This document shows, in pieces, positions 27,413 to 62,194 of a stretch of DNA of 64,000 nucleotides. The translations under genes and the position numbers were made by a program. Source of the stretch: a virus (Duplodnaviria; Caudoviricetes); IMG/VR virus record IMGVR_UViG_3300029288_000072, positions 134,443 to 198,442 of that record; one strand, given 5' to 3'. The notes under the pieces are model-generated. The model had not been told where the DNA came from, did no database searches, and saw only the letters and a list, made by a program, of their open reading frames with translations. Position 1 is the first letter of the stretch; the number at the start of each line of letters is the position of its first letter.

Positions 27413-28351
27413 CTATAGTTCCTTATTTTTAATTATTTCAAATAAATCATATAAACATGCCATAAAGTTTATTTCTGGATCTATTACTAATGAATGCATA
27501 TATTGATAATTTGCTATTGTAGTTATTATTTGTCCTACTTTTGTACCATCATCCGAAAATTTTCTATTATTTGTAGCATCATATAATGCTCTATATAGTT
27601 TAGGATATTCATAATTACTTAATAAACATTCTTTTCTAATTGTTCCTAATTTTCCTTCACACAACATTGATACCATTTGATCTGTAACTTCATTTCCTAC
27701 CATTTCTTTTTTAAATGTAAATACTGCCCCATTTGTAAATTTTTGCATATTGTTTATCGTTGAACGGATATCAGGATAAAAATGTTTTACTAATTCTTTT
27801 AAATCATTTTTAACAGCATCCGTTAATTCTACGCCTTTATCTTTTAAAATCTTTCCACATCGTTTTAAAATATCAATTGGTTTTGTATTTTTAAAATCAA
27901 ATTTTTGAAATCTTGATTTTAAAGGTTCTATAATTTTATTATCATAATTTGCTGTCATTATGAATCTACAATGTTCTTGAAATTCTTCTGTTGTATTTCT
28001 TAACATAGCTTGGGCAGACGTACTCAAAAAGTCTGCTTCATCTAATACTATTATTTTAAGATTTTCTATACCTACCGTATAACAAAAGTCTTTAACATCT
28101 GTTCTTATTGTGTTTACATCATTTCTATCAGATGCACTAATATAAAGATAATCCCCTCCAGAAATTTGTTTTGCTAATATTTTGGCAACTGTAGTTTTAC
28201 CCGTTCCTGGATCACCAACAAATAACAAATTTGGGATTGATTTTGTTTTAATAAAATCATTAAATTTTTCGATTAACAATTCTGTTCCAAGAACATCCTC
28301 TATCTTAGTTGGTCTGTATTCTGCTTCCCACGGATGATTAATATCGCTCAT
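27413..28351 (-). CDS. 44: Clamp loader large subunit (T4 gp44 / RFC-like)
   Basis: W..EYRP, GDPGTGKTT, LDEAD, CRFI, PLKSR, YPDIR. Confidence 0.95.
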   Translation of the reverse strand: MSDINHPWEAEYRPTKIEDVLGTELLIEKFNDFIKTKSIPNLLFVGDPGTGKTTVAKILAKQISGGDYLYISASDRNDVNTIRTDVKDFCYTVGIENLKIIVLDEADFLSTSAQAMLRNTTEEFQEHCRFIMTANYDNKIIEPLKSRFQKFDFKNTKPIDILKRCGKILKDKGVELTDAVKNDLKELVKHFYPDIRSTINNMQKFTNGAVFTFKKEMVGNEVTDQMVSMLCEGKLGTIRKECLLSNYEYPKLYRALYDATNNRKFSDDGTKVGQIITTIANYQYMHSLVIDPEINFMACLYDLFEIIKNKEL

Positions 28352-28361
28352 TATTTTCCCT

Positions 28362-29117
28362 TCATGCAATCATTTTAGACATAAAATATTCGGTTTTGCA
28401 ATAACTTGTTGTTATTGAAATATTAATCAACTTTGAGCCAATATTTATTTTAATATCTTTCATATCCTTTGTACCAAATATTATAGGAAATGCTTTTTTT
28501 CTAAATATTATATCAAAATTTTCTTTTACTGTTGCATCTGTATAAACAGTAAATGTATTAGATTTTGTATCTTTGTTTTTTATACTTAATTTCAATCTTC
28601 CTTTTTCTTCTTGTCCGGTAATAAAAATACATTCTTCGCTCATTTTATTTAATGCTGTTATAAACTTGTCTAAACTAGTTGAATAATCTAATGTTGCTAA
28701 CCAATCTACACCTTTAAACGACCGTTTGCCTTCCTGAATTAATTCTGTATCAGATGTTTTAAACTCTAATGTGCAATTCTTTTGTAAGAATGATAATAAA
28801 GAACAATCATCAAATTCAAATTCTAATGGGATATCTTTATCAAAAATACTTAATCTACTTAATAAATCTTGTGGTTTTAAAATTCCTATTTTTTGTTCAT
28901 CTTTTTGAAATTCAAAAGAATCAAATAATGAATTCCATGTATGAATGATAATAATACCATCATTCCTGTTTATAGCAGGAATCATAGAAACTCGTTTACC
29001 ATTTTCGTCTTTAAAAAATACTATATTAACACCATTTTCACCAACCAGACTACCAATTGTTTTTAATGGTTCTGTAAATTGGTTTAATTCTTTTGATGAT
29101 TCGAATTTGCCTTTCAT
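28362..29117 (-). CDS. 45: Sliding clamp (T4 gp45-like)
   Basis: 251 aa beta-rich protein directly upstream of gp44; size and synteny. Confidence 0.65.
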   Translation of the reverse strand: MKGKFESSKELNQFTEPLKTIGSLVGENGVNIVFFKDENGKRVSMIPAINRNDGIIIIHTWNSLFDSFEFQKDEQKIGILKPQDLLSRLSIFDKDIPLEFEFDDCSLLSFLQKNCTLEFKTSDTELIQEGKRSFKGVDWLATLDYSTSLDKFITALNKMSEECIFITGQEEKGRLKLSIKNKDTKSNTFTVYTDATVKENFDIIFRKKAFPIIFGTKDMKDIKINIGSKLINISITTSYCKTEYFMSKMIA

Positions 29118-34108: not shown

Positions 34109-35095
34109 TCACTTTATGTCAAAATCATCATCATTAAAATCGACATCATCTAAATCTGTATTGTCGATTTCGTCATCATCTTTTGCTTCTTCTACTTTTG
34201 CTTCTGTTTTTGGTTTTTCTGATGCTTTAGGAGTTTCCTTTTCGACATCATCATCACCAAAATCAACCTCGGAACTACCGATTTCTGCATTATCATTTGT
34301 GACTTCTGTTGCAGTATTTGTATCTGCTACTTCATCATCATGTCCTTTTAGACCACCAATTAGGCATTCTCGCAATTCATTTGCTGTCTTAATTGGGTCT
34401 CTTTCAAGGATCTTATTCTTAATTACAAGTTCCTTTGCTGTCTTATATACTTCTTCCATTTTTTCTTCATTTTCATCAATTGGCTTGCTACCACCAACGA
34501 ATTTAGAATCTGAATAATCTGGCCATTCTCCCTTTTGCTTCATTAGAAGCAAGAAGTCTTTACCTTCAAATGGATCCCAGAATGGTGCTTCATCTTCTGA
34601 TGTTTCTTCAATTTCATCCATCCACTTATCAAATAATGTCTTTGATGCTTCATAGATTAAAATTTTACCAACCATATCTTGATTAGCCTCTGGTGCCTCT
34701 TTAACATAAACTTTTACGAAATAACGAGGTTTGCGATAAAATTGTTGGGCCTGCTTCTTATCAAGTGCATTATCGCTGGAATATAATTCTGCAGCTTTAT
34801 CTGCAATTGGGTTTGCAGCCTTGCTATCAAATGAACGAGGGTCGATAACTTTAATATATTTATTATCTCCCTGTCTCTGGAACATATGATATCTAATCTC
34901 TACCCAAGGCTTTCCTGTAGGTGATTCGTCGTCTAAAGGAAGAATACGAATACGGTATTTTGCTTTCGTCTCTCCTTTTACAATCACTGGCTTGAAAAAG
35001 CTTTCGCTGGCATATGAACTGCCCGGTTTCTTGCGTTCCTCTCCGATCTTTTGTTTGACCTGTTGGAACTTATCTTTTACTGACTTAAAGCCCAT
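34109..35095 (-). CDS. 32: Single-stranded DNA-binding protein (T4 gp32-like)
   Basis: IRILP, PW, Y..VYV, GKILIY, FWDPFEG.DF.L, YSDSKF, acidic C-tail. Confidence 0.9.
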   Translation of the reverse strand: MGFKSVKDKFQQVKQKIGEERKKPGSSYASESFFKPVIVKGETKAKYRIRILPLDDESPTGKPWVEIRYHMFQRQGDNKYIKVIDPRSFDSKAANPIADKAAELYSSDNALDKKQAQQFYRKPRYFVKVYVKEAPEANQDMVGKILIYEASKTLFDKWMDEIEETSEDEAPFWDPFEGKDFLLLMKQKGEWPDYSDSKFVGGSKPIDENEEKMEEVYKTAKELVIKNKILERDPIKTANELRECLIGGLKGHDDEVADTNTATEVTNDNAEIGSSEVDFGDDDVEKETPKASEKPKTEAKVEEAKDDDEIDNTDLDDVDFNDDDFDIK

Positions 35096-35124: not shown

Positions 35125-35727
35125 TTATATGCAATGATTGCATATTTGTCGGTTTTTTATTGTTTTTAACATACTTTCTGATCTTTCTTTTAATAATGCA
35201 TTTAAATTCTTATCTAATATTCGTAACTTTACATTATCATAATTATTAATAAAAGATCGTAATAATATTTTTTCTACTCTTTTTAATTTTCTTCTATCTA
35301 TTAATTTCATATAAACTACTATAGCCTCATCAACTTTATTTTCTCGTACATGACTTTTTATATATTGCTCACAATAATCCTCAAATGATAAATTGTTTTT
35401 TATACAGTAATTTTCTATAAAATCAAATCCTTCTTTTACATGTTGTAAATATAATGATACTGTTGATTTGTTTTTTTCCCATTCTTCATATAATTTATCA
35501 TTATCTTCATTAATTAATGAGAATGGATCGAATCCCTTCACATCATTATTATACACACAACAAATATACCCGTCAACATCTTTTTCGGTCAATCCTCTAT
35601 CAATAAAAAGTTTTGCCATTGCCTCAAAATAGTTTTTATATGAACAATTTAAATACTTATCAAAAGAAAGTACATATTTCTTTTTTAACTTATTACACTT
35701 ACAATATATTAAATAACCAGTAATCAT
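35125..35727 (-). CDS. Helicase loader (T4 gp59-like)
   Basis: TG..IY, YF..M..., LYEEW.K pattern; T4 order 33-59-32. Confidence 0.6.
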   Translation of the reverse strand: MITGYLIYCKCNKLKKKYVLSFDKYLNCSYKNYFEAMAKLFIDRGLTEKDVDGYICCVYNNDVKGFDPFSLINEDNDKLYEEWEKNKSTVSLYLQHVKEGFDFIENYCIKNNLSFEDYCEQYIKSHVRENKVDEAIVVYMKLIDRRKLKRVEKILLRSFINNYDNVKLRILDKNLNALLKERSESMLKTIKNRQICNHCI

Positions 35728-36008
35728 AATACTTTTTTCATTTCCTTTTCAAATATTTTTTCTGATTCTTCATGCAATAAGTCTAAATTTCTAGTATTTA
35801 ATTTTCCATATAATTGATTTGGTTCTACACCAAACATTTCTGACATTTTTATGATAATATCAAATATATTAAACTTCATTAATCTTAATTTATCTACCAT
35901 ATTATTTATTGCTTCTTTTTCTATTTTGTGTACTTGCTGCGCTGACATATTTAACTCTGATCCTATTTGTTCATATGTTAGGTTTTTTTTAACTTTCTTT
36001 GGATGCAT
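35724..36008 (-). CDS. Sigma70 region-4-like HTH fused to gp33-like late co-activator segment
   Basis: LTYEQIGSELNMSAQQVHKIEKEAINNM matches sigma4.2; C-half resembles gp33 core; gene-33 position upstream of gp59/gp32. Confidence 0.6.
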   Translation of the reverse strand: MHPKKVKKNLTYEQIGSELNMSAQQVHKIEKEAINNMVDKLRLMKFNIFDIIIKMSEMFGVEPNQLYGKLNTRNLDLLHEESEKIFEKEMKKVL

Positions 36009-36103
36009 TGATAATTCCTCATAATGTTTCCTTTATATTTCATAGCGTTTAAATAAACATTACCATATTATATCATTTTTAATTATCAATGCAAGAATTA
36101 TTT

Positions 36104-37573
36104 TCAGAAATCTTTAATCTCCCTCGTCTTAACTACTGTAGTATCAGATGGTTTTTCATCTTCATCATTCATTTCGGTTTCTATATCCAATGTATCCTTT
36201 TTCGGTTGTTGTTTTTCTTCTGTTTTAGTATCCGGCTTTTTTGCAGTTATTTTTGGTGTTGCCGTAGATTCTTGGTCGTCTATAAGTTTCATATACTTAT
36301 AATTTACTTTTGCTAAGAATGATCCACCATTCCTTGAGAATCTTGATTTCGCAATTGATATAATCATAGAATCATCATCATCCAAATCACTATTTCTTGC
36401 CATTGTAACCAATACATCAACGGTTTGTGCAATTCCAATAGAGTCCGCTACATCTTCCATTCCTATGTTTGTTTGTCCGTATGATTGTCTGCCAGTTTGT
36501 GCAGCCGACATAACACATGCTTTATATTCAATAGCCAATGCTCTTAATTCTTCACAAACAGTTACAATCTTTCCATATGTATTATCAGAAAATGCCTTTC
36601 CATTTGGCCTTACTAATTTCAAATAGTCAACTATTATAAAATCTGGTTTAAAATTACTTTGTAGTTCAAGATTTTTTAATAATACTCGTATATCATTTGA
36701 TGAAATTGCATTTGGTGCATATTCTTTATATACTAATCGGCCTAATGATTTTCCATCCTTCTTTAATTGTTCTCGTCTAATAATAGCTTTCTTCAACGCT
36801 AATGCAGGGTCGATGTTTACCTCATCCATAGGAACATTTGCAAATTTTGCATCTGTTCTTTGTTGGATATAATTTTCACTCAATTCTAGAGACAAATATA
36901 AAACATTATATCCATTAAAAGCTAATGTCGATGCAGCGTCATTTAATATTAGCGTTTTTCCTACGTTTGACGGACCAGCAAATACGAACATAGATTTTCT
37001 TCTATATCCGCCACCTATTCTATTATCCAATGATTGGATTCCAGTTGGAATAATTTCTTCTCTTATATTTGAATCTGCTAATCTTTGTTCTAATGCAGAA
37101 AAATATTCTACACCAACGCTTTCATCAAAACTTATTTGGAATGCATCTTCCATAGTTTTAACAATTTCTTCATGCTTATGTTCATCAATAAGATCTGTTA
37201 CTTTTATAACAGCATTTATTATTCTTTTTGTTTTAATAAATTTCTTTGTTTCGTCACATATCCAATCATAGTTTTTTGCAACATCCAATTCTATAGAAAA
37301 TGCTTGAGTCAGAGTATCAAGACTTTGACCCAAGCGTTTTTCACTTTTCTTGGCTATAACAGGTAATATTTTATCTTCTAGAATTTTTGGACTTGGAGAC
37401 CTGTTATATTTATTAAAAAAACTTTTTATTCCTAAAATAACATCCTGTGATTTTGGGGAAAATAAATCGGTAGTCATTTTAGAAACATATGTTCTGCAAT
37501 AGATATCAGATGATATTAGAGATTTTATAATATAAAATTCTATTGCATCAAAATCATGTTGTACATCAGTCAT
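36104..37573 (-). CDS. 41: Replicative DNA helicase (T4 gp41 / DnaB-like)
   Basis: IPTG, AGPSNVGKT, SLELSE, KEY, IIVDYL, EELR, AQTGR, DSIG, KSR. Confidence 0.95.
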   Translation of the reverse strand: MTDVQHDFDAIEFYIIKSLISSDIYCRTYVSKMTTDLFSPKSQDVILGIKSFFNKYNRSPSPKILEDKILPVIAKKSEKRLGQSLDTLTQAFSIELDVAKNYDWICDETKKFIKTKRIINAVIKVTDLIDEHKHEEIVKTMEDAFQISFDESVGVEYFSALEQRLADSNIREEIIPTGIQSLDNRIGGGYRRKSMFVFAGPSNVGKTLILNDAASTLAFNGYNVLYLSLELSENYIQQRTDAKFANVPMDEVNIDPALALKKAIIRREQLKKDGKSLGRLVYKEYAPNAISSNDIRVLLKNLELQSNFKPDFIIVDYLKLVRPNGKAFSDNTYGKIVTVCEELRALAIEYKACVMSAAQTGRQSYGQTNIGMEDVADSIGIAQTVDVLVTMARNSDLDDDDSMIISIAKSRFSRNGGSFLAKVNYKYMKLIDDQESTATPKITAKKPDTKTEEKQQPKKDTLDIETEMNDEDEKPSDTTVVKTREIKDF

Positions 37574-37592: not shown

Positions 37593-37621
37593 ATTATATC
37601 AAAGATTTGAATGGGAATCAA
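37593..37621 (-). promoter_or_regulatory. Sigma70-type promoter for gp41 (TTGATT-17-TATAAT, extended TG)
   Basis: -35 at 37616-21, -10 at 37593-98. Confidence 0.6.
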
Positions 37622-38811
37622 TTTTCTTTTTCGGAATCTTCTGTAGTTTCTTCCTCTATATTTTCTACAGTATCTTCAAGAACATCGTCAAAATCACCTT
37701 TTTGTAGACTTTCGTAACAAATCGATTCTTCTACTTTCTTATTCAAATCTTGAAGAATTCCTTCCCAAACATCTTTAGAATTTTCTTTTAGATATAATTG
37801 CTTTTCAAAAAACATTTTATCTAAATGTTTAACATAAACTCTGGTTGTTCGCTTTTCAAAAAATCCATGTTCAATTCCATCAACAATAAGATCGTAAAAT
37901 TTACTTAGACCTTTTGTAAATGATAATAATATTTCACATGAAAGACCTTCTGGAACAACTCTATTTTTATCTGTTCTTGCTCTTAAAATAACACCTTTAG
38001 CAACTTTAACATTATCGCCAGCGGCATTCTTTTCGTCCTCTCTAATTGTTTTCTTTGTTAAAGAGATTACACCAGTACATGCATAAATAAATCCTTCACC
38101 ACCACTCATTTTTCTTGTAGGAGCGGCATGTGGATTTGCTGCAGCTTGTTCATAACTATGGTTTATAACTACCATTGGGATATTATAATGACCACATTTA
38201 TTTGTTAGTGCTCTGGCACATGTACGCATTTCTTTTGCACGTTGACCCATGTCAGATGCATGTTTTCCTTCTTCGATATCATTAGATTCTTTTGTTCCTA
38301 GTAAGTTTCCTATAGAATCACATACCATAAATAATTTTGCATCATCTCCAAACTTTTCTCTCCACTTTTTCATATCATTTGATGCCATATTTCTAAATTC
38401 ACTAATTGTTTCTGGTGTTCTGATAATCAACGAATCAGTATCTACACCAATTCTTGTTAAAAACATTTTATCTACAGCATTTTCAGTATCATAATAAATT
38501 ATTTGATAACCTTTCTTTTGTGCTTCTCTTGCTGCGCATCCTGCTAATAATGACTTTCCGCAACCGGATGGACCATGTAAAGCATATAATCTATTACTTG
38601 CATATCCTTTAAAATATGATCCACTAATCATTCTATTAAATGCATAAGATCCGGACGATATAAAATCGACCATATTTCCCTTCGCATCATCTAGTAGTGC
38701 TGCTTTTTCATCATTAAGACTTTCTACGAAGTCTAGTGCCCGCTTTGCGGCATCGGATAAACCACTTTTTGCTTTTGGCTCATCTGTATCTATTTTCTTT
38801 GGCCTTGCCAT
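37618..38811 (-). CDS. uvsX: RecA-like recombinase UvsX
   Basis: GPSGCGKS, YDTENA, DSIGNL, DMGQRAK, INH.Y, SGG.G, KNR. Confidence 0.95.
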   Translation of the reverse strand: MARPKKIDTDEPKAKSGLSDAAKRALDFVESLNDEKAALLDDAKGNMVDFISSGSYAFNRMISGSYFKGYASNRLYALHGPSGCGKSLLAGCAAREAQKKGYQIIYYDTENAVDKMFLTRIGVDTDSLIIRTPETISEFRNMASNDMKKWREKFGDDAKLFMVCDSIGNLLGTKESNDIEEGKHASDMGQRAKEMRTCARALTNKCGHYNIPMVVINHSYEQAAANPHAAPTRKMSGGEGFIYACTGVISLTKKTIREDEKNAAGDNVKVAKGVILRARTDKNRVVPEGLSCEILLSFTKGLSKFYDLIVDGIEHGFFEKRTTRVYVKHLDKMFFEKQLYLKENSKDVWEGILQDLNKKVEESICYESLQKGDFDDVLEDTVENIEEETTEDSEKEN

Positions 38812-38955: not shown

Positions 38956-41900
38956 TTATGCGAAAAGATCTTCTATGTCCTCTATTTCACAATTTGGTAT
39001 TTCCCATCTTAAAACTTGAAAAAATTGATGTAATGGTTTCATGAAAATCTTCTCCCACATTGTATCATAATCTATACAATCTTCTAGACCAAATTCTGAT
39101 GGTATTTTTTCTTTAAATGAAATTGCATTATTTCTAAAATGATCCTGTTCATGAATATATACTACTCGTACTTTGTCACCTTCATATATTAATTCATATT
39201 TGTCTTCTAACTTCATTTCTTTAATTAATTTATTATAAATTATGGCACCTTTTATATGCTGTGGACATCCTTTGATCGGATATCCAGTCAAAGAATCTGT
39301 ATATTTTTCCAAATTATTCGCAGTACTTACTTTAGATATTGATACTGGTGTAGATTTCATAAATTCTGTATAATATTTTAAAATTTCATTTTTAACTTTT
39401 TCTTTATCTAATGTTTTCATTAATATTGTAACTACAGATTTTAATGCGTTTCTTACAATTTCTGGTGTGCTTGATCTGACAATTTCAACCCCTTTAACCT
39501 CTAATTCGTGTTCATCACCCTCTGGAATATCCTTCCCTTCCATGTTTAATACATATGCAACATATCTCTTTTTTGCTAAGTGTAATCCTCTTCTAGATAT
39601 CATTTCTCTCTTAAATGATATTCTGTTCTCTGGACAATTCATTCTTACTTTCGCAAGATGTTCCATTCTTGTATCAATTATTTTTGTAATTAATGGTGAT
39701 ATCTTTTCATCTAAAAACTTTACAGTCTTTTGAATATCAGTATCATCATAATTAATACTTTTTAAAATTCTTCCTGCTGCTAAATAGCAAGAATTGTGTA
39801 ATAATATATCGTTTGCAAAATATGTATGTGGAGTATCTACCATTCCTATATCATAAACGTCCTGATAATCAGAATTAATGTATTCTACTGACTCTACTTC
39901 GTCAACTTCATAATCTAATTGTAATTCATTGTTTTGCAGTTCACAATCAACATATATATTATGTTGTTTATACTTCAAACTAATTATTTTATCACCACGG
40001 ATTATTTCTTTTGGTTTCTTTTCTACTAATTTTCCATTACTATCTATAACCATACATGAATGGTCTTCTGTAACACTTACATGTTTGCCAGATTTTGTTT
40101 TTATTTTAAATATAGGTTTTTGTACAAAATGTCTCTCAATATACTGGACCTTACCAAAATTTATTTTCTTGTTTTCTTCATCATAAAACGGTAATTCCGT
40201 ATTATTACAAAATATAAATGCTCTTCCATCATGATGTACTTTTATTAAGTTATCATTTTGTATTGCTTCTTGTTCAAAAAACTCTCTAAAAGTCTTTTTT
40301 TTACCATTTTTCATAACAACAATATCAGAAAAAACGTTGGAGTCGGTGTCATTATACGTAATAATATTACTGATATTTTTAGCTTTTAATTTTTTTCCAA
40401 TGTTAGTATCTTCCCATTTTTCAAAATATGAGTTTATTGCATGAGAAGTATTTTTAATTATTTCTTGACCAGTTAAAGTAATAGCAGCAGCACTATCTTG
40501 GTCATATAATCTAGACCATTCAGTACCAAAAAACCCAAAAACAGAGTTTATCAAAATTTTAAAATTATACTGAAGTCCATTTTGAATTTTTTCTTCATCA
40601 TGATTGCCAGATTTTTTAGCATCTTTCATTAAATTTTTATGATAATTTCTTTTTTGAAACCATTCTTCTACGAATTTTGGTACAACACCTTGTTTATCAT
40701 GTCTATAAATTGCACCATTTGATGCGATTGATAATTTGTGTTCTTTTATTTTATTTACCCATTCTATACATGTAGAACCATCTTCTGTTTCAATATCTCT
40801 GTGTTTATTTTTTTCAAAATCTTCTAACATATCAAGAATAATTATTGCTTCTTGTTCAGTAACTTTTGATATTTTTGTTTCTGGAGATATATTATGTTGT
40901 ATCATAATAGACGGATACAGAGAGGTTGCATCATATGACATCAACCACTCATGTACACCAGTTTGGGGATCGTGAACATATGCACCTGTAAATTTATCAT
41001 TTTTTTCTGACCCCGCAACATCCGGTAAAACTATTTTATCCAATAACAGTTTAGATATGAATGCCCCATCTAATATTTTTGTTGTAACCGCAAATTGTTC
41101 AAATGGAACTCTGCATCCATAACAAATAGTTGTCATAATGCTCATAAACTGTAATTTTTCATCTAATTTAATTAGAAGATTAACGTCTTGTACGTTATAT
41201 TCTACGTATTTTTGCCAATCTTTATTATATAGTTCTTTTAATGATCCTTCATAATGGATTTTAGACTCATTTATTTCTAATCTAGCTATATAATCAAGTC
41301 TATATGATTCTTGTTGATTTGGGTGATATTTCTTATAAAGTTCTAAGTAGTCTATACAGTTTATACCTGCAATTTCAAATCGTTCTACTTCTTTATTAGA
41401 AAACTTTGTTCTTGATATATGTTTTTTAATAATACCTATAGGAGAAAGTTTACTTGTTTGTCTTTCTCCTAATATTTTATTACAACGGTTTATTATATAT
41501 GGTATATCATATGAACTACTGTTCCACCCCGAAACTATATCCGGATGGATCTGATTAATAAATTTTACAAACGTTGCCAACAATTCTTTTTCTGTTTTAA
41601 AAGATTTTACATAATGGTTCATTTCTCCATTTTTATCTTTTAAAAAATCTGTATTAAAATCGTTTGCAGCAAAAATATAATATTTTTGTCGTTTAGTTGA
41701 CCATACAGTAATAATTACAATAGGATGTTCTGCTTCTTCTGCCTTTGGAAATCCTGTTTCAGAATGCACTTCGATATCTATAAAATGTACGTCGAATTTT
41801 GGTGGGATTAATTCTTGTCCTGCCCAATGATCTAAAATAAATCTATTATTTTGTGATATATCAGATTCGAACAATTTTCTTCCTGCATCTTTATACATTT

Positions 41901-42105
41901 TTTTAGTATCAATAAATTTTCCTATTGTGTCAAATTCAACCTTTCTTAGTTTATCTCCATAAATTGAAGTATATTCTCCTTCTGGATGTTGCATATAAAA
42001 ATAAAGGGGAGCCGCCTCTTTATAATGGCGTTTCTCCCCTTCATTGTCATATTCCCACCAATGAATAGTACTATTTGATTTTTGGAAATATACTGAACTA
42101 TACAT
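38956..42105 (-). CDS. 43: Family B DNA polymerase (T4 gp43-like) with mini-intein
   Basis: DIEV exo I, GWNS..YD, YNVQDV, DATSLYPS, KILINSVFG, YNDTD|S, KKRY, KGVE. Confidence 0.97.
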   Translation of the reverse strand: MYSSVYFQKSNSTIHWWEYDNEGEKRHYKEAAPLYFYMQHPEGEYTSIYGDKLRKVEFDTIGKFIDTKKMYKDAGRKLFESDISQNNRFILDHWAGQELIPPKFDVHFIDIEVHSETGFPKAEEAEHPIVIITVWSTKRQKYYIFAANDFNTDFLKDKNGEMNHYVKSFKTEKELLATFVKFINQIHPDIVSGWNSSSYDIPYIINRCNKILGERQTSKLSPIGIIKKHISRTKFSNKEVERFEIAGINCIDYLELYKKYHPNQQESYRLDYIARLEINESKIHYEGSLKELYNKDWQKYVEYNVQDVNLLIKLDEKLQFMSIMTTICYGCRVPFEQFAVTTKILDGAFISKLLLDKIVLPDVAGSEKNDKFTGAYVHDPQTGVHEWLMSYDATSLYPSIMIQHNISPETKISKVTEQEAIIILDMLEDFEKNKHRDIETEDGSTCIEWVNKIKEHKLSIASNGAIYRHDKQGVVPKFVEEWFQKRNYHKNLMKDAKKSGNHDEEKIQNGLQYNFKILINSVFGFFGTEWSRLYDQDSAAAITLTGQEIIKNTSHAINSYFEKWEDTNIGKKLKAKNISNIITYNDTDSNVFSDIVVMKNGKKKTFREFFEQEAIQNDNLIKVHHDGRAFIFCNNTELPFYDEENKKINFGKVQYIERHFVQKPIFKIKTKSGKHVSVTEDHSCMVIDSNGKLVEKKPKEIIRGDKIISLKYKQHNIYVDCELQNNELQLDYEVDEVESVEYINSDYQDVYDIGMVDTPHTYFANDILLHNSCYLAAGRILKSINYDDTDIQKTVKFLDEKISPLITKIIDTRMEHLAKVRMNCPENRISFKREMISRRGLHLAKKRYVAYVLNMEGKDIPEGDEHELEVKGVEIVRSSTPEIVRNALKSVVTILMKTLDKEKVKNEILKYYTEFMKSTPVSISKVSTANNLEKYTDSLTGYPIKGCPQHIKGAIIYNKLIKEMKLEDKYELIYEGDKVRVVYIHEQDHFRNNAISFKEKIPSEFGLEDCIDYDTMWEKIFMKPLHQFFQVLRWEIPNCEIEDIEDLFA
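39793..40341 (-). mobile_element. Mini-intein (183 aa, no homing endonuclease) at the DTD|S site of Pol motif C
   Basis: Starts Ser after YNDTD; block B VTEDHS; block F VYDI; ends HN followed by Ser. Confidence 0.92.
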
Positions 42106-42975: not shown

Positions 42976-43629
42976 TTATTTGTTTATATACGTTGAAACT
43001 AATTTTCTTAATGTTTCTGGATAATCACAATCTATTTTTTCCCATTTTTCATAATATTCTTTTGGAATTTTTGGGTTATTGATTGCAGATCCACGATATA
43101 GATAAAATTTATTATGTTCTTTAAACATCTCTAACATTCTATCAATACTATATCCATTTTCTATATCAATTTTATTATCATATTCTGTAAAATTAAATAA
43201 TTTTTTATAGACAAATTTTGCTTCATCTACTGAATATATCTTTTTCTTGCCAAATATTTCATAGACCATTTCTTTATCTATTCTATCTACTAGCATATTA
43301 GAAATCTTTAATCCTCTTTTGATATCATTTTCCCAAAAGTCCAGCCAATTTTTCATATTGTCTGGTGTTCCATAATAGCAACATTTTAATTCTGCTTTTT
43401 TATTATATATTCCTATTAACCAATGAAGAGTTCTATATCTCTTTATCACGTTTAGAGTTAGGGAACTTGCAGTTGAAACTTTACCTACTGTAGTAGATTT
43501 AAGTTCAAATCCAACTATTTGTTTTTTAATTTTTAGTTTTGCATCGACACCAGTTCTTCCGGTATCTTTTATGAGTTCAAAAAGAGATATTAATTGTCGT
43601 TCTCTTTTATTATCCTGTATTTCAACCAT
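42976..43629 (-). CDS. PvuII-like type II restriction endonuclease
   Basis: QDN, GRTGVDA, ELKS, ST, I.RYR..W..IY, INNPKIP..Y collinear with R.PvuII as recalled; ~60 aa insertion. Confidence 0.75.
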   Translation of the reverse strand: MVEIQDNKRERQLISLFELIKDTGRTGVDAKLKIKKQIVGFELKSTTVGKVSTASSLTLNVIKRYRTLHWLIGIYNKKAELKCCYYGTPDNMKNWLDFWENDIKRGLKISNMLVDRIDKEMVYEIFGKKKIYSVDEAKFVYKKLFNFTEYDNKIDIENGYSIDRMLEMFKEHNKFYLYRGSAINNPKIPKEYYEKWEKIDCDYPETLRKLVSTYINK

Positions 43630-45272: not shown

Positions 45273-45280
45273 TATAAATA
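45273..45280 (+). promoter_or_regulatory. T4-type late promoter TATAAATA
   Basis: Exact consensus, 5 nt before ATG 45286. Confidence 0.65.
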
Positions 45281-46059: not shown

Positions 46060-46602
46060 ATGTCAACAGAGAAAATTATCAAAAATCGTCGTCGTGGAAG
46101 AGGAAAAATAAAGATTACAAAACGACAATTAGTAGATAATTCCGAATTAGTACAAGAATTGGTCAATTTTAGAGCATCATATGAAAAAGAAGTAAATGAT
46201 CATAAAAATAAAATAAAAGAACGTAAAAAGAAAGGTGCATCTGCAACCGAAATTAAAAAATTAGAACAAAAAGAAATATTTGGAACTCCATCAGAAAGAT
46301 TAGGAGAAATATTCGTAAATTTAGTAGACAATTTCGCTACTAAAACAAACTTTTCTGGATACACATATCTTGAAGAAATGAAATCAAGAGCAATATTCTT
46401 CCTATTAAAATATAGCAAAAACTTTGATCCTGCTAAGAGTAAAAACGCATTCGCATATTGTACACAATTCGTATATCATGCATTTTTACAGGTAATTAAA
46501 AAAGAAAAGAAACATATTGAAACTAAAAAGGCATTAGTAGAAAAATACTATAATGAACGACATTTTGAGAGAAAAGATGATGACTTGATTTTTGGTGCAT
46601 AA
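46060..46602 (+). CDS. 55: Late-transcription sigma factor (T4 gp55-like)
   Basis: VDN.EL, LGE.F, NFSGYTY.EEM, NFDP.KSKNAFAY.TQ...AFLQ.IKKEKK. Confidence 0.92.
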   Translation: MSTEKIIKNRRRGRGKIKITKRQLVDNSELVQELVNFRASYEKEVNDHKNKIKERKKKGASATEIKKLEQKEIFGTPSERLGEIFVNLVDNFATKTNFSGYTYLEEMKSRAIFFLLKYSKNFDPAKSKNAFAYCTQFVYHAFLQVIKKEKKHIETKKALVEKYYNERHFERKDDDLIFGA

Positions 46603-49479: not shown

Positions 49480-49487
49480 TATAAATA
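49480..49487 (+). promoter_or_regulatory. T4-type late promoter TATAAATA
   Basis: Exact consensus right after gp46 stop, upstream of AGGAG SD. Confidence 0.6.
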
Positions 49488-52654: not shown

Positions 52655-52662
52655 TATAAATA
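52655..52662 (+). promoter_or_regulatory. T4-type late promoter TATAAATA
   Basis: Exact consensus, 5 nt before ATG 52668. Confidence 0.65.
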
Positions 52663-57524: not shown

Positions 57525-57532
57525 TATAAATA
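57525..57532 (+). promoter_or_regulatory. T4-type late promoter TATAAATA
   Basis: Exact consensus in divergent gap ahead of + strand operon 57592-62194. Confidence 0.55.
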
Positions 57533-59842: not shown

Positions 59843-60375
59843 GAATAGTTGGTGTCGATCCAGGTATTAATGGTGGATTATGTTTTATGACCGATGGGGT
59901 TGTTAATGCGGTTGTAAAAACACCTACATATGCATATACAGTAGGTTCGGGAAAGAAATTAAAGAAAAAGAAAATGCTGGATGCAGAAATTGTCGGGGAA
60001 TTGATAAAAAAGTTTAATCCTCATGCAGTCTATATTGAAAAGGTTGGAGGAATGCCAGGACAGGGAATTACATCTACATTTAATTTCGGGTTTGTAACTG
60101 GAATGGTCCACGGAATTTGTGGTGCATTAAAAATAAAAGTAACTACTGTTAGACCTCAAGAATGGAAAAAAGTTATACTAGAAAATGAAGATCATGATAA
60201 AGATGCAGCTATAGGATTTTGTCAACAAAACTTTCCTGATGTCAATTTATTACCAACAAAAAGATCCACAGAACCACATGATGGAATGGCAGAATCTATT
60301 TGTATAGCAATTTTTGGTCTGAAAAATGAAATAAATAAAATAAATACTACCGGAGATTCTACTAATGAAGGCTAG
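59839..60375 (+). CDS. RuvC-like Holliday junction resolvase
   Basis: GVDPG, YIEKV, F.FG, P.EWKK, DGMAE. Confidence 0.88.
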   Translation: MRIVGVDPGINGGLCFMTDGVVNAVVKTPTYAYTVGSGKKLKKKKMLDAEIVGELIKKFNPHAVYIEKVGGMPGQGITSTFNFGFVTGMVHGICGALKIKVTTVRPQEWKKVILENEDHDKDAAIGFCQQNFPDVNLLPTKRSTEPHDGMAESICIAIFGLKNEINKINTTGDSTNEG

Positions 60376-62194
60376 ATATAACGGAATACTATATAAAGTT
60401 ATAGATAAAACAGATAAATTCGTTATTCTGGAAGGAAAAGGTGGATACACATTTAAAGCATACTTAGAAAATGTAATATTTGAAAATAAACCAGAAGAAG
60501 TTCTTCCAAAAGAAAGACCACCTGTAAATGATATTGTAGAACAATCTGAAGATAAAAGCCTAATAGAAATGCCGTATGTAGATACACCAGATCATAGAGG
60601 ATTTGATTTTGCATTTGAAATATTAAATAAAAATTATCCCGATATAAATGAACGTAAACAAGTCTTTATTACTATGTTAAAAGATATTTTTGATGGAAAA
60701 AAAGTTCAAAGCCCTAGAAACGAAGATAATATTATAGAATTAAAAACAGATGAAGATAAACAAGATTTTTCAGATTATCTGTTGTCTGATGATACATTTA
60801 AATTATCAATACAAAAGTTTTTTAATCTATCCATAGAAGATATAATGGATACAATATCAAGACCTACGTTAATAAATGAAATAGATTTAAAAAAGATCGC
60901 AACTCATCCTGATGTAATTGATGCTATCAAAACAGTTTATAGTATAAAAGGGGTTGGTGATAGAAAAGGTGAATATAGTCCAGAAAGAGCAGTAGGTATG
61001 TTAAAACGTGCCGCAGAATTATTAAAGAAAGAAGGTAAATTAACAGAAGAAGAATATATAAAAAGAATAGTCGAATGGCTAAAAAAATCTGGTGATAGAG
61101 GAAAAGGAAGAAAAGTTATAGGTCTAAATGACTTACCTGGAGAAGTTATGTCAGATATTTCAAAACAACCAAAAAAAGAACCAGAAACAAAATTAAATGA
61201 TAATACAAAAGAGTTAGTACAGAAAATTATTGATTATATAGAAAATGGTAAGGTAACATATGATGAAATTAATACTGTTTTAAAAGATGAAAATGCACTA
61301 GAATATTTAGACCAAATAATAACAGTTTTAGAAAAACTTAATGTTGAAATAGTTGACGAAAAAACTCCTGAAACACAAACTCCTGCAATGTCTGGTGAAT
61401 TAAACGAATGTGGTGTTACATCTGCTGCTGCACCAGGAACAATGGATGCAACAACAAATCAAGCAATAGATGGAACTAGTGGAATTGCTATTAGACCATC
61501 ACGATTCGGCAAAAAAGATGAATATAAGTCTGATTTACAAAGAAGACTTGCAGAAGAAGTTGGATATGCCTCTTTAGAAGAAGTTTTTAAAACAGAAGTT
61601 CCTACAACAGGATTAACAAGTATAGAAGTATTAAAAAAGAAACAAAATGATGAAAAACAAAAAGAAGAATTAAAAAAATATTATTCGGAATTAGAAAATA
61701 ATAAACAAACCCCCGAAGAACTAGAAGAAGTAGTTAAAACAAAACTTAGAAAAAGACAAGACGCAACAAGTATATCATCATTAAAAGGTCCATATGAACA
61801 TGCTACAAAAGTTTTAAAAGATAAAGAACAACAAAATACTCCTAAAGAAAAAGAATTGGATGAAGTCGTTTCTACAAATTTAAGACCAACCCAAAATCTA
61901 AGAGATATAACAACATTGAAAGGTCCACATGCGGATGCGGTTAAAGCACAAGGAACTGCAACTACACGAAGAATGCCAGCAATAACCCCTTCTGTATCTA
62001 AAACTGATGATACAAAAAAATATACAAAGCCTAAATCTCACTCTGTCGGAATTATGAGGGAAAAAATTAAAAAATTATTTGATAATATTAATAATTCCGA
62101 TAATTTTGAATTTGATATAGAAGAACAAGAAGAAACAACATTAGAAGAAGAATTTGATTTAAATAAAATAATAGACGAATCACTAAACTCTTGA
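60365..62194 (+). CDS. Multi-module late protein with a sigma70 region 1.1-like domain and tandem repeats
   Basis: GKVTYDEINTVL...LDQIITVLEKLNVEIVDE; two ~43 aa repeats; many L/I-x-E motifs. Confidence 0.7.
   Translation: MKARYNGILYKVIDKTDKFVILEGKGGYTFKAYLENVIFENKPEEVLPKERPPVNDIVEQSEDKSLIEMPYVDTPDHRGFDFAFEILNKNYPDINERKQVFITMLKDIFDGKKVQSPRNEDNIIELKTDEDKQDFSDYLLSDDTFKLSIQKFFNLSIEDIMDTISRPTLINEIDLKKIATHPDVIDAIKTVYSIKGVGDRKGEYSPERAVGMLKRAAELLKKEGKLTEEEYIKRIVEWLKKSGDRGKGRKVIGLNDLPGEVMSDISKQPKKEPETKLNDNTKELVQKIIDYIENGKVTYDEINTVLKDENALEYLDQIITVLEKLNVEIVDEKTPETQTPAMSGELNECGVTSAAAPGTMDATTNQAIDGTSGIAIRPSRFGKKDEYKSDLQRRLAEEVGYASLEEVFKTEVPTTGLTSIEVLKKKQNDEKQKEELKKYYSELENNKQTPEELEEVVKTKLRKRQDATSISSLKGPYEHATKVLKDKEQQNTPKEKELDEVVSTNLRPTQNLRDITTLKGPHADAVKAQGTATTRRMPAITPSVSKTDDTKKYTKPKSHSVGIMREKIKKLFDNINNSDNFEFDIEEQEETTLEEEFDLNKIIDESLNS

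Follow-up and report, generated by a model that had tools for sequence, protein, structure and literature searches.

In the literature on T4 late transcription, the co-activator gp33 is treated as a functional mimic of sigma domain 4. No sequence similarity to sigma can be discerned in this protein (PMC2988020), nor is its structure related to that of sigma region 4 (PMC7892883). T4 late promoters have no -35 element, and gp33 reaches upstream DNA through K75 alone (PMC2988020, PMC7892883). Clamp-binding tails are expected of gp43, gp55 and gp33 (PMC2988020, PMC7892883), and the tail of T4 gp33 is essential for activation (PMC7892883). Some accepted gp33 homologues have no obvious clamp motif according to a 2010 review (PMC2988020), so the clamp tail is not universal in the gp33 family. 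Some phages of the T4 superfamily, such as phiM9, have no detectable gp33 (PMC4621102), and our scans of the phiM9 and RM378 genomes found none. A search of the open-access literature turned up no gp33 described as having a sigma-4.2-type HTH. The 94-aa ORF described here is a divergent gp33 relative whose front end resembles a sigma HTH.

The window, that is the whole 64,000-nt stretch analysed here, forms the final 64 kb of an IMG/VR virus record of 198,442 bp, with 27% G+C and a CheckV completeness of 84%. Its minus strand carries a T4-like gene series in the order pol, uvsX, 41, 94-aa ORF, 200-aa ORF, 32. The series comprises the gp43 DNA polymerase (38956..42105; phrog_262, E 3e-216), whose C-terminus EDLFA is the clamp-binding motif of the phage, a UvsX-type RecA (37618-38811), a gp41-type DnaB helicase (36104..37573; phrog_19, E 4e-85), the 94-aa ORF itself (35724..36008), the 200-aa ORF (35125..35727) and the gp32 ssDNA-binding protein (34109..35095; PF08804, E 3.3e-16; phrog_224, E 6e-29). 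No cultured phage has a helicase more than about 34% identical to this one, which indicates a deep-branching T4-like lineage. Elsewhere in the window, a 217-aa ORF on the minus strand (42976-43629), between genes for a dUTPase and a glycosyltransferase, matches the PvuII restriction endonuclease family (PF09225, E 1.7e-7).

The start of the 200-aa ORF overlaps the stop of the 94-aa ORF. Its product has no Pfam or PHROG match and its hhalign comparison with gp59 is not significant; it was the fold search alone that identified it as a homologue of the helicase loader gp59. The AF2 model of this protein (pLDDT 88.5), compared by VIA with 48,161 chains, has T4 gp59 (1c1k_A) as its top match, with Z 8.5 over 177 aligned residues against Z 5.3 for the second-ranked chain. 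Two adjacent ORFs thus independently pick gp33 and gp59 of T4, in the T4 order 33-59-32. The preliminary description had put the 94-aa ORF in the 33 slot of that order, and the assignment is borne out by the best match of the neighbour to T4 gp59 and by the PF08804 match of gp32. T4 DsbA, a neighbour of gene 33 in T4, was also compared and is unrelated.

A word-indexed search with the 94-aa ORF returned six relatives at 52-63% identity, and a HMMER scan of 1.8 billion representatives (E <= 0.001) extended the family to 45 members, nearly all of 85-119 aa and aligned end to end. The family alignment and the counts given below refer to 44 members, and the close subfamily to seven homologues. The gene order pol, uvsX, 41, 94-aa ORF homologue, 200-aa gene, 32 is kept in nine related uncultured contigs, eight from IMG/VR and one from Logan (L039), which marks the ORF as a gene conserved and under selection in one phage clade. 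Among 50,697 phage records, neither tblastn of the 94-aa ORF nor megablast of the region returned anything; at the sensitivity of these searches, cultured phages thus show no member of the family. Searched with the family profile, the PDB sequences gave chance matches alone.

The AF2 model of the 94-aa ORF (pLDDT 85.8) contains five helices. A VIA-align comparison of this model with 48,161 PDB representatives, run without prefiltering by Foldseek, had as its top match 3tbi_A, T4 gp33 on the beta flap (Z 6.9, rmsd 4.0, runner-up Z 5.6), a score that is moderate when taken alone and lies in a range that the tool calls common for helical models. The alignment covers 68 of 71 residues and places model residues 26-93 on gp33 residues 32-101; the five-helix fold of T4 gp33 (3TBI) is present in the model, at that moderate Z. 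In an hhalign comparison, the 44-member family matches 19 canonical gp33s with Prob 87.8 and E 3.3e-6 over 50 columns, corresponding to window residues 37-85 (35754..35900, minus strand), the Trans_coact core homology region. The canonical set was located via PF16805 and spans T-even-type phages, two cyanophages, Synechococcus phage B23, HTVC008M, pf16, Moby, a Rhizobium phage and a Paraglaciecola phage. Against T4 gp33 alone the match is weak (E 0.0086). The structural alignment, at an offset of +6 to +8, is in the same register as the profile-profile alignment and the single-sequence comparison with T4 gp33. In this register K69, which is K or R in 36 of the 44 members, aligns within one residue of K75, the upstream-DNA contact of T4 gp33 (PMC7892883). 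An initial hhalign of seven sequences against T4 gp33 had shifted the core by one helix compared with the profile and structural alignments made later; it was discarded, and with it the claim that the N-terminal 30 residues of T4 gp33 are a degenerate HTH.

Genome scans point the same way. On six-frame translations, the family HMM has a single match in each of P-TIM40, P-RSM6 and HTVC008M, in each case on the PF16805 gp33 gene (E 0.003-0.009 per genome); the canonical gp33s of T4, pf16, RHph_I1_18, Paraglaciecola GD1, B23 and Moby are missed. Conversely, three family members match PF16805 directly, one with 25.9 bits against a cut-off of 25 (P0036) and two with E 0.001-0.003 (P0017, P0022), while the window protein itself has no PF16805 or phrog_254 match. 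Foldseek against BFVD returned two "late-transcription coactivator" models among the better superpositions, none at E <= 0.001; a lead to Tenacibaculum phage pT24 from this search was dropped, as neither the family HMM nor PF16805 matches the pT24 genome. By profile comparison and predicted structure, the 94-aa ORF is, over its C-terminal two thirds, homologous to the T4 late co-activator gp33, in agreement with the preliminary description of a gp33-like helical segment behind the HTH, and the profile-profile E-value and the top rank of 3tbi_A bear this out. That description had also raised a case in which the C-terminal half showed no gp33 similarity and a canonical gp33 stood elsewhere; in the 198-kb record the similarity is present, and a scan with PF16805 and phrog_254 found no canonical gp33 there or in a 92%-complete relative of 332 kb. 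The HTH-bearing form therefore replaces the canonical gp33 and is not added to it.

The resemblance to T4 gp33 extends to length (about 90-110 aa), to the position of the gene beside genes 59 and 32, to the presence of gp55, gp45 and gp44 in the same genome, to a basic residue near K75 and, in many relatives of the ORF, to a clamp-type C-terminal tail. The differences lie at the two ends and in overall divergence. Compared with every canonical gp33, the protein has about 20 extra N-terminal residues, predicted to form a basic arm and one helix, and its N-terminal half is basic and not acidic; the window copy has no clamp tail and is too divergent for PF16805 and phrog_254. The closest canonical relatives by sequence, the gp33s of cyanophages and of the pelagiphage HTVC008M (about 69-73 aa), share the pol-uvsX-41 order. 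Unlike the 94-aa ORF, they begin at the core helix and have no first HTH helix, so that the clade adds to them the basic arm, the first HTH helix and the turn.

The added segment begins with the arm (residues 1-8; 35985..36008, minus strand), which holds four Lys and is modelled as disordered (pLDDT <50 for residues 1-6). Combined with the beginning of the gp33 core helix, the arm and helix form an HTH of the sigma-70 region-4.2 type (residues 9-36; 35901..35984, minus strand). In Pfam terms, these residues match positions 20-47 of the 50-position Sigma70_r4 profile (PF04545) at E 2.5e-5, and the score of 24.1 bits coincides exactly with the gathering cut-off. The start of the ORF and its sigma-4.2 match stand as they were first reported. 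A six-frame scan of the whole 198-kb genome gave this as the sole Sigma70_r4 match (genome 170343-170429, window 35901-35987). The same model is matched by all seven close homologues and by 22 of the 44 members of the wider family (best E 7e-7); the second-commonest Pfam match is HTH_3, in 10 of the 44. The match spans the 28-residue HTH only, and short HTH matches can cross between families. Among the matches of the family profile outside the family (E 3.6e-5 to 9e-4) are four Sigma70_r4 proteins and one Cro/CI-type repressor. Another distant match of this profile, a metagenomic protein of 325 aa (P0044), consists of two repeats, each with Sigma70_r4 followed by an RNA polymerase alpha C-terminal domain.

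With Foldseek against the PDB, the HTH superposes locally on solved sigma-4 structures at an rmsd of 0.4-0.9 Å over 26-34 residues, with non-significant E-values. In the ESM Atlas, the ten best clusters with a Pfam family are all Sigma70_r4 (score 0.93); by structure, the closest neighbour is a viral Sigma70_r4 cluster of 70 aa. The long recognition helix (23-43 in the model) contributes its C-terminal half as the start of the gp33 core as well. In one relative (P0017), Sigma70_r4 lies on residues 8-36 and Trans_coact on residues 29-68; because the two matches overlap, they share one helix. The 94-aa ORF and sigma-70 region 4.2 are thus alike in the sequence pattern of both HTH helices (Pfam positions 20-47), in local backbone and in the presumed docking site on RNA polymerase, the beta flap. 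In contrast to sigma-70 region 4, the ORF has no 4.1 helices, as the match begins at profile position 20 and is preceded by eight residues modelled as disordered. It also lies outside a sigma polypeptide: a search without length limits returned no sigma-fused family member, and the ORF stands alone. Its recognition helix runs on into a gp33-type bundle and not to the end of the protein. In the Pfam register, the positions of the -35-reading R-E-R of sigma-70, which we take to be R584-E585-R586, are occupied by A-Q-Q in the window protein and by A/P-Q-Q in the family; the replacement of RER by AQQ noted earlier thus holds. We conclude that the 94-aa ORF is a gp33 variant carrying a sigma-4.2-like HTH.

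The protein could also be a free-standing HTH repressor or activator that acts without binding to RNA polymerase and whose resemblance to gp33 is coincidental. The best PHROG matches of the protein are indeed generic "transcriptional regulator" families, and several HTH Pfam families score weakly on it. This explanation is nevertheless very improbable, since the profile-profile match, the top structural match and the scans that land on canonical gp33 genes are three independent lines leading to gp33, to which are added the clamp-type tails of relatives, the gene-33 slot and the lack of another gp33. We consider it probable that the 94-aa ORF is the gene-33 orthologue of this phage lineage, a flap-bound late co-activator with an HTH placed near the DNA.

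As a gene-33 orthologue, the small helical protein would most likely clamp onto the flap-tip helix of the beta subunit of host RNA polymerase, by analogy with T4 gp33, and would act in late transcription with gp55, the sigma-2-like factor expected to recognise TATAAATA, and with the gp45 clamp. The gene for gp55 was confirmed on the plus strand where it had been proposed at 46060-46602 (46048/46060-46602; phrog_234, E 2e-29), and its product ends in the tail DLIFGA. This gp55 has a strongly basic N-terminal stretch, with several Arg and Lys in residues 10-30. A candidate gp45 sliding clamp (28362..29117, minus strand; phrog_223, E 1.4e-6) lies directly upstream of the gp44 clamp loader (27413-28369, minus strand; phrog_168, E 1.6e-77). 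The Pfam gp45 models PF09116 and PF02916 match no clamp in the genome, the candidate being too divergent for both.

The sequence upstream of the 94-aa ORF suggests expression driven by the host sigma factor, before the late phase. The 95-nt spacer between genes 41 and 33 contains a sigma-70-type promoter-like site read from the sequence (TTGCAT, 16 nt, TGaTATAAT; 36067..36094, minus strand), followed by a GAGGA ribosome site; the consensus scan omitted this site, whose -35 hexamer agrees at three of six positions only. The octamer TATAAATA is absent from genome positions 160213 to 179715, a range that covers the pol-uvsX-41-33-59-32 cluster. The promoter-like site and the lack of TATAAATA in the cluster together point to pre-late expression, as a late-transcription factor needs.

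Genome-wide, TATAAATA is under-represented, with 43 copies compared to about 125 expected from an estimate based on base composition. As many as 22 of the 43 copies fall in the approximately 7% of the DNA that is non-coding, at most 60 nt upstream of a gene and in the correct orientation; examples in the window lie at 45273-45280, 49480-49487, 52655-52662 and 57525-57532. Such placement is what a T4-type late promoter would show. Upstream of these 22 promoters, in this one genome and for sites of the TATAAATA type, no position from -60 to -1 exceeds 0.5 bit, and no 5-mer or 6-mer is enriched after correction.

These promoters bear on how the HTH would meet the DNA. The preliminary description had suggested that it reads a -35-like element, a claim left unsupported by the 22 TATAAATA promoters without a conserved upstream element and by the A/P-Q-Q at the R-E-R positions. 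Had the phage a true split sigma factor, the HTH would read a specific upstream element and, with gp55, define a bipartite late (or middle) promoter. The sigma-4.2-like character of the HTH is in keeping with such an arrangement, as are the presumed flap position, which is the sigma-4 site, and the invariance of S22, Q24, Q25, V26, H27 and K28 among the seven close homologues, which are 49-56% identical overall. Given the flat information profile upstream of the TATAAATA sites, with no enriched k-mer, and the absence of region 4.1, we regard a sequence-reading split sigma as unlikely.

A stronger rival holds that the ORF is an ordinary gp33 orthologue whose HTH-like N-terminus has no DNA role and serves as a structural cap or as a surface that touches another protein, such as gp55 or the beta-prime zinc-binding domain, being either the remnant of a sigma-4 ancestor or a gain by fusion. 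Several observations agree with it: the TATAAATA sites have no upstream element, the -35-reading residues of sigma-70 are replaced, and the exposed residues of the recognition helix, invariant in the close subfamily only, vary across the 44 members. In addition, T4 gp33 alone does not bind DNA, and among phages gp33 varies greatly in its N-terminal third (PMC2988020, PMC7892883). The charge of the segment argues against it. The first 45 residues have a family mean net charge of +2.1, compared to -5 for residues 1-52 of T4 gp33, a protein that is acidic throughout (-5 and -5), and a basic arm followed by an HTH is a typical DNA-binding layout. Moreover, 38-41 of the 44 members retain Ser/Thr where the recognition helix starts, as well as the N-K pair at 35-36, and Val-His at 26-27 is well kept; in the close subfamily S22, Q24, Q25, H27 and K28, which are exposed, do not vary. 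On balance, an N-terminus without a DNA role is plausible and less probable than the co-activator with a DNA-near HTH.

For the flap-bound co-activator, the basic HTH half, the lack of an upstream element, the A/P-Q-Q residues and the parallel with T4 together speak for a DNA contact that is non-specific or weakly specific; the main rival is an HTH that contacts protein or is vestigial. The mildly basic HTH may thus lie near upstream promoter DNA and touch it in a sequence-independent or weakly specific manner, a contact that would extend the single backbone contact of K75 in T4 gp33.

The C-terminal ends of the family members vary. About 20 of the 44 relatives end in an acidic linker followed by an LF-type motif (DDLFG, DDLFA, EDLFR), and these tails resemble the ends of the polymerase (EDLFA) and gp55 (DLIFGA) of the same phage. 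The window protein lacks both the acidic linker and the LF-type tail and ends eight residues past the last conserved core aromatic, as do its nearest relatives (P0010, P0013). The clamp would therefore be held through the gp55 tail alone. Members with a tail and members without one do not differ in the net charge of their HTH half, which gives no support to the idea that the HTH compensates for the missing tail.

The preliminary description further proposed that regions 1.1, 2 and 4 of sigma are spread over three genes, with a sigma-1.1-like module at 61208-61360. At the Pfam level this module is real: a 609-aa ORF (60365-62194, plus strand) matches Sigma70_r1_1 over residues 293-338, at about nt 61241-61378, with E 6.9e-7 and 29.6 bits against a cut-off of 22.5. 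The 609-aa protein has no other domain and no PHROG match, and a search for relatives of the sigma-1.1-like segment returned only the protein itself. We found nothing that functionally links this protein to gp55 or to the gp33 homologue, and the working of 1.1-like, 2-like and 4-like pieces as one modular sigma would be pure inference. Besides an HTH-bearing gp33, the 332-kb IMG/VR relative (G002) has a gene for a sigma factor of the ECF type (L020:1063-1617), which contains regions 2 and 4 and whose region 4.2 starts with LTYEQI, as the HTH does.

Three origins of the HTH fit the data: retention of a sigma-4.2 HTH by a gp33 that descends from sigma-4, fusion with a stand-alone mini-protein, and convergence. 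Phages have abundant stand-alone sigma-4.2-like mini-proteins of 60-70 aa, among them P0047, P0053 and the ESM Atlas clusters with Sigma70_r4, that resemble the 94-aa ORF in the HTH and in the residues just after it; unlike the ORF, they have no gp33 core and lie in arrays of small genes and not in the replication cluster. The earlier suggestion of an intermediate in gp33 evolution is possible, and secondary fusion with such a mini-protein accounts for the data just as well. The lability of gp33 in its N-terminal third (PMC2988020) favours a gain of the HTH, whereas the sigma-like pattern that reaches into the conserved core helix favours retention or a fusion within the helix. More tentatively, gp33 as a whole may descend from sigma region 4, with this clade keeping the 4.2 HTH that T4, cyanophage and other gp33s have lost. 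The pair gp55 and gp33 would then be a sigma split by descent and not a sigma-4 mimic, and the HTH may still touch upstream DNA and partly replace the clamp tether in the tail-less copies.

Taken together, these results assign genes 33 and 59 in a deep-branching T4-like lineage where the standard family models find neither. A natural gp33 clade with an HTH that shares the core helix makes the origin of gp33 testable, as a sigma-4 descendant, a fusion or a product of convergence. Such a variant is also a natural test case for upstream DNA contact by a flap-bound co-activator and for activation without the clamp-binding tail of gp33.
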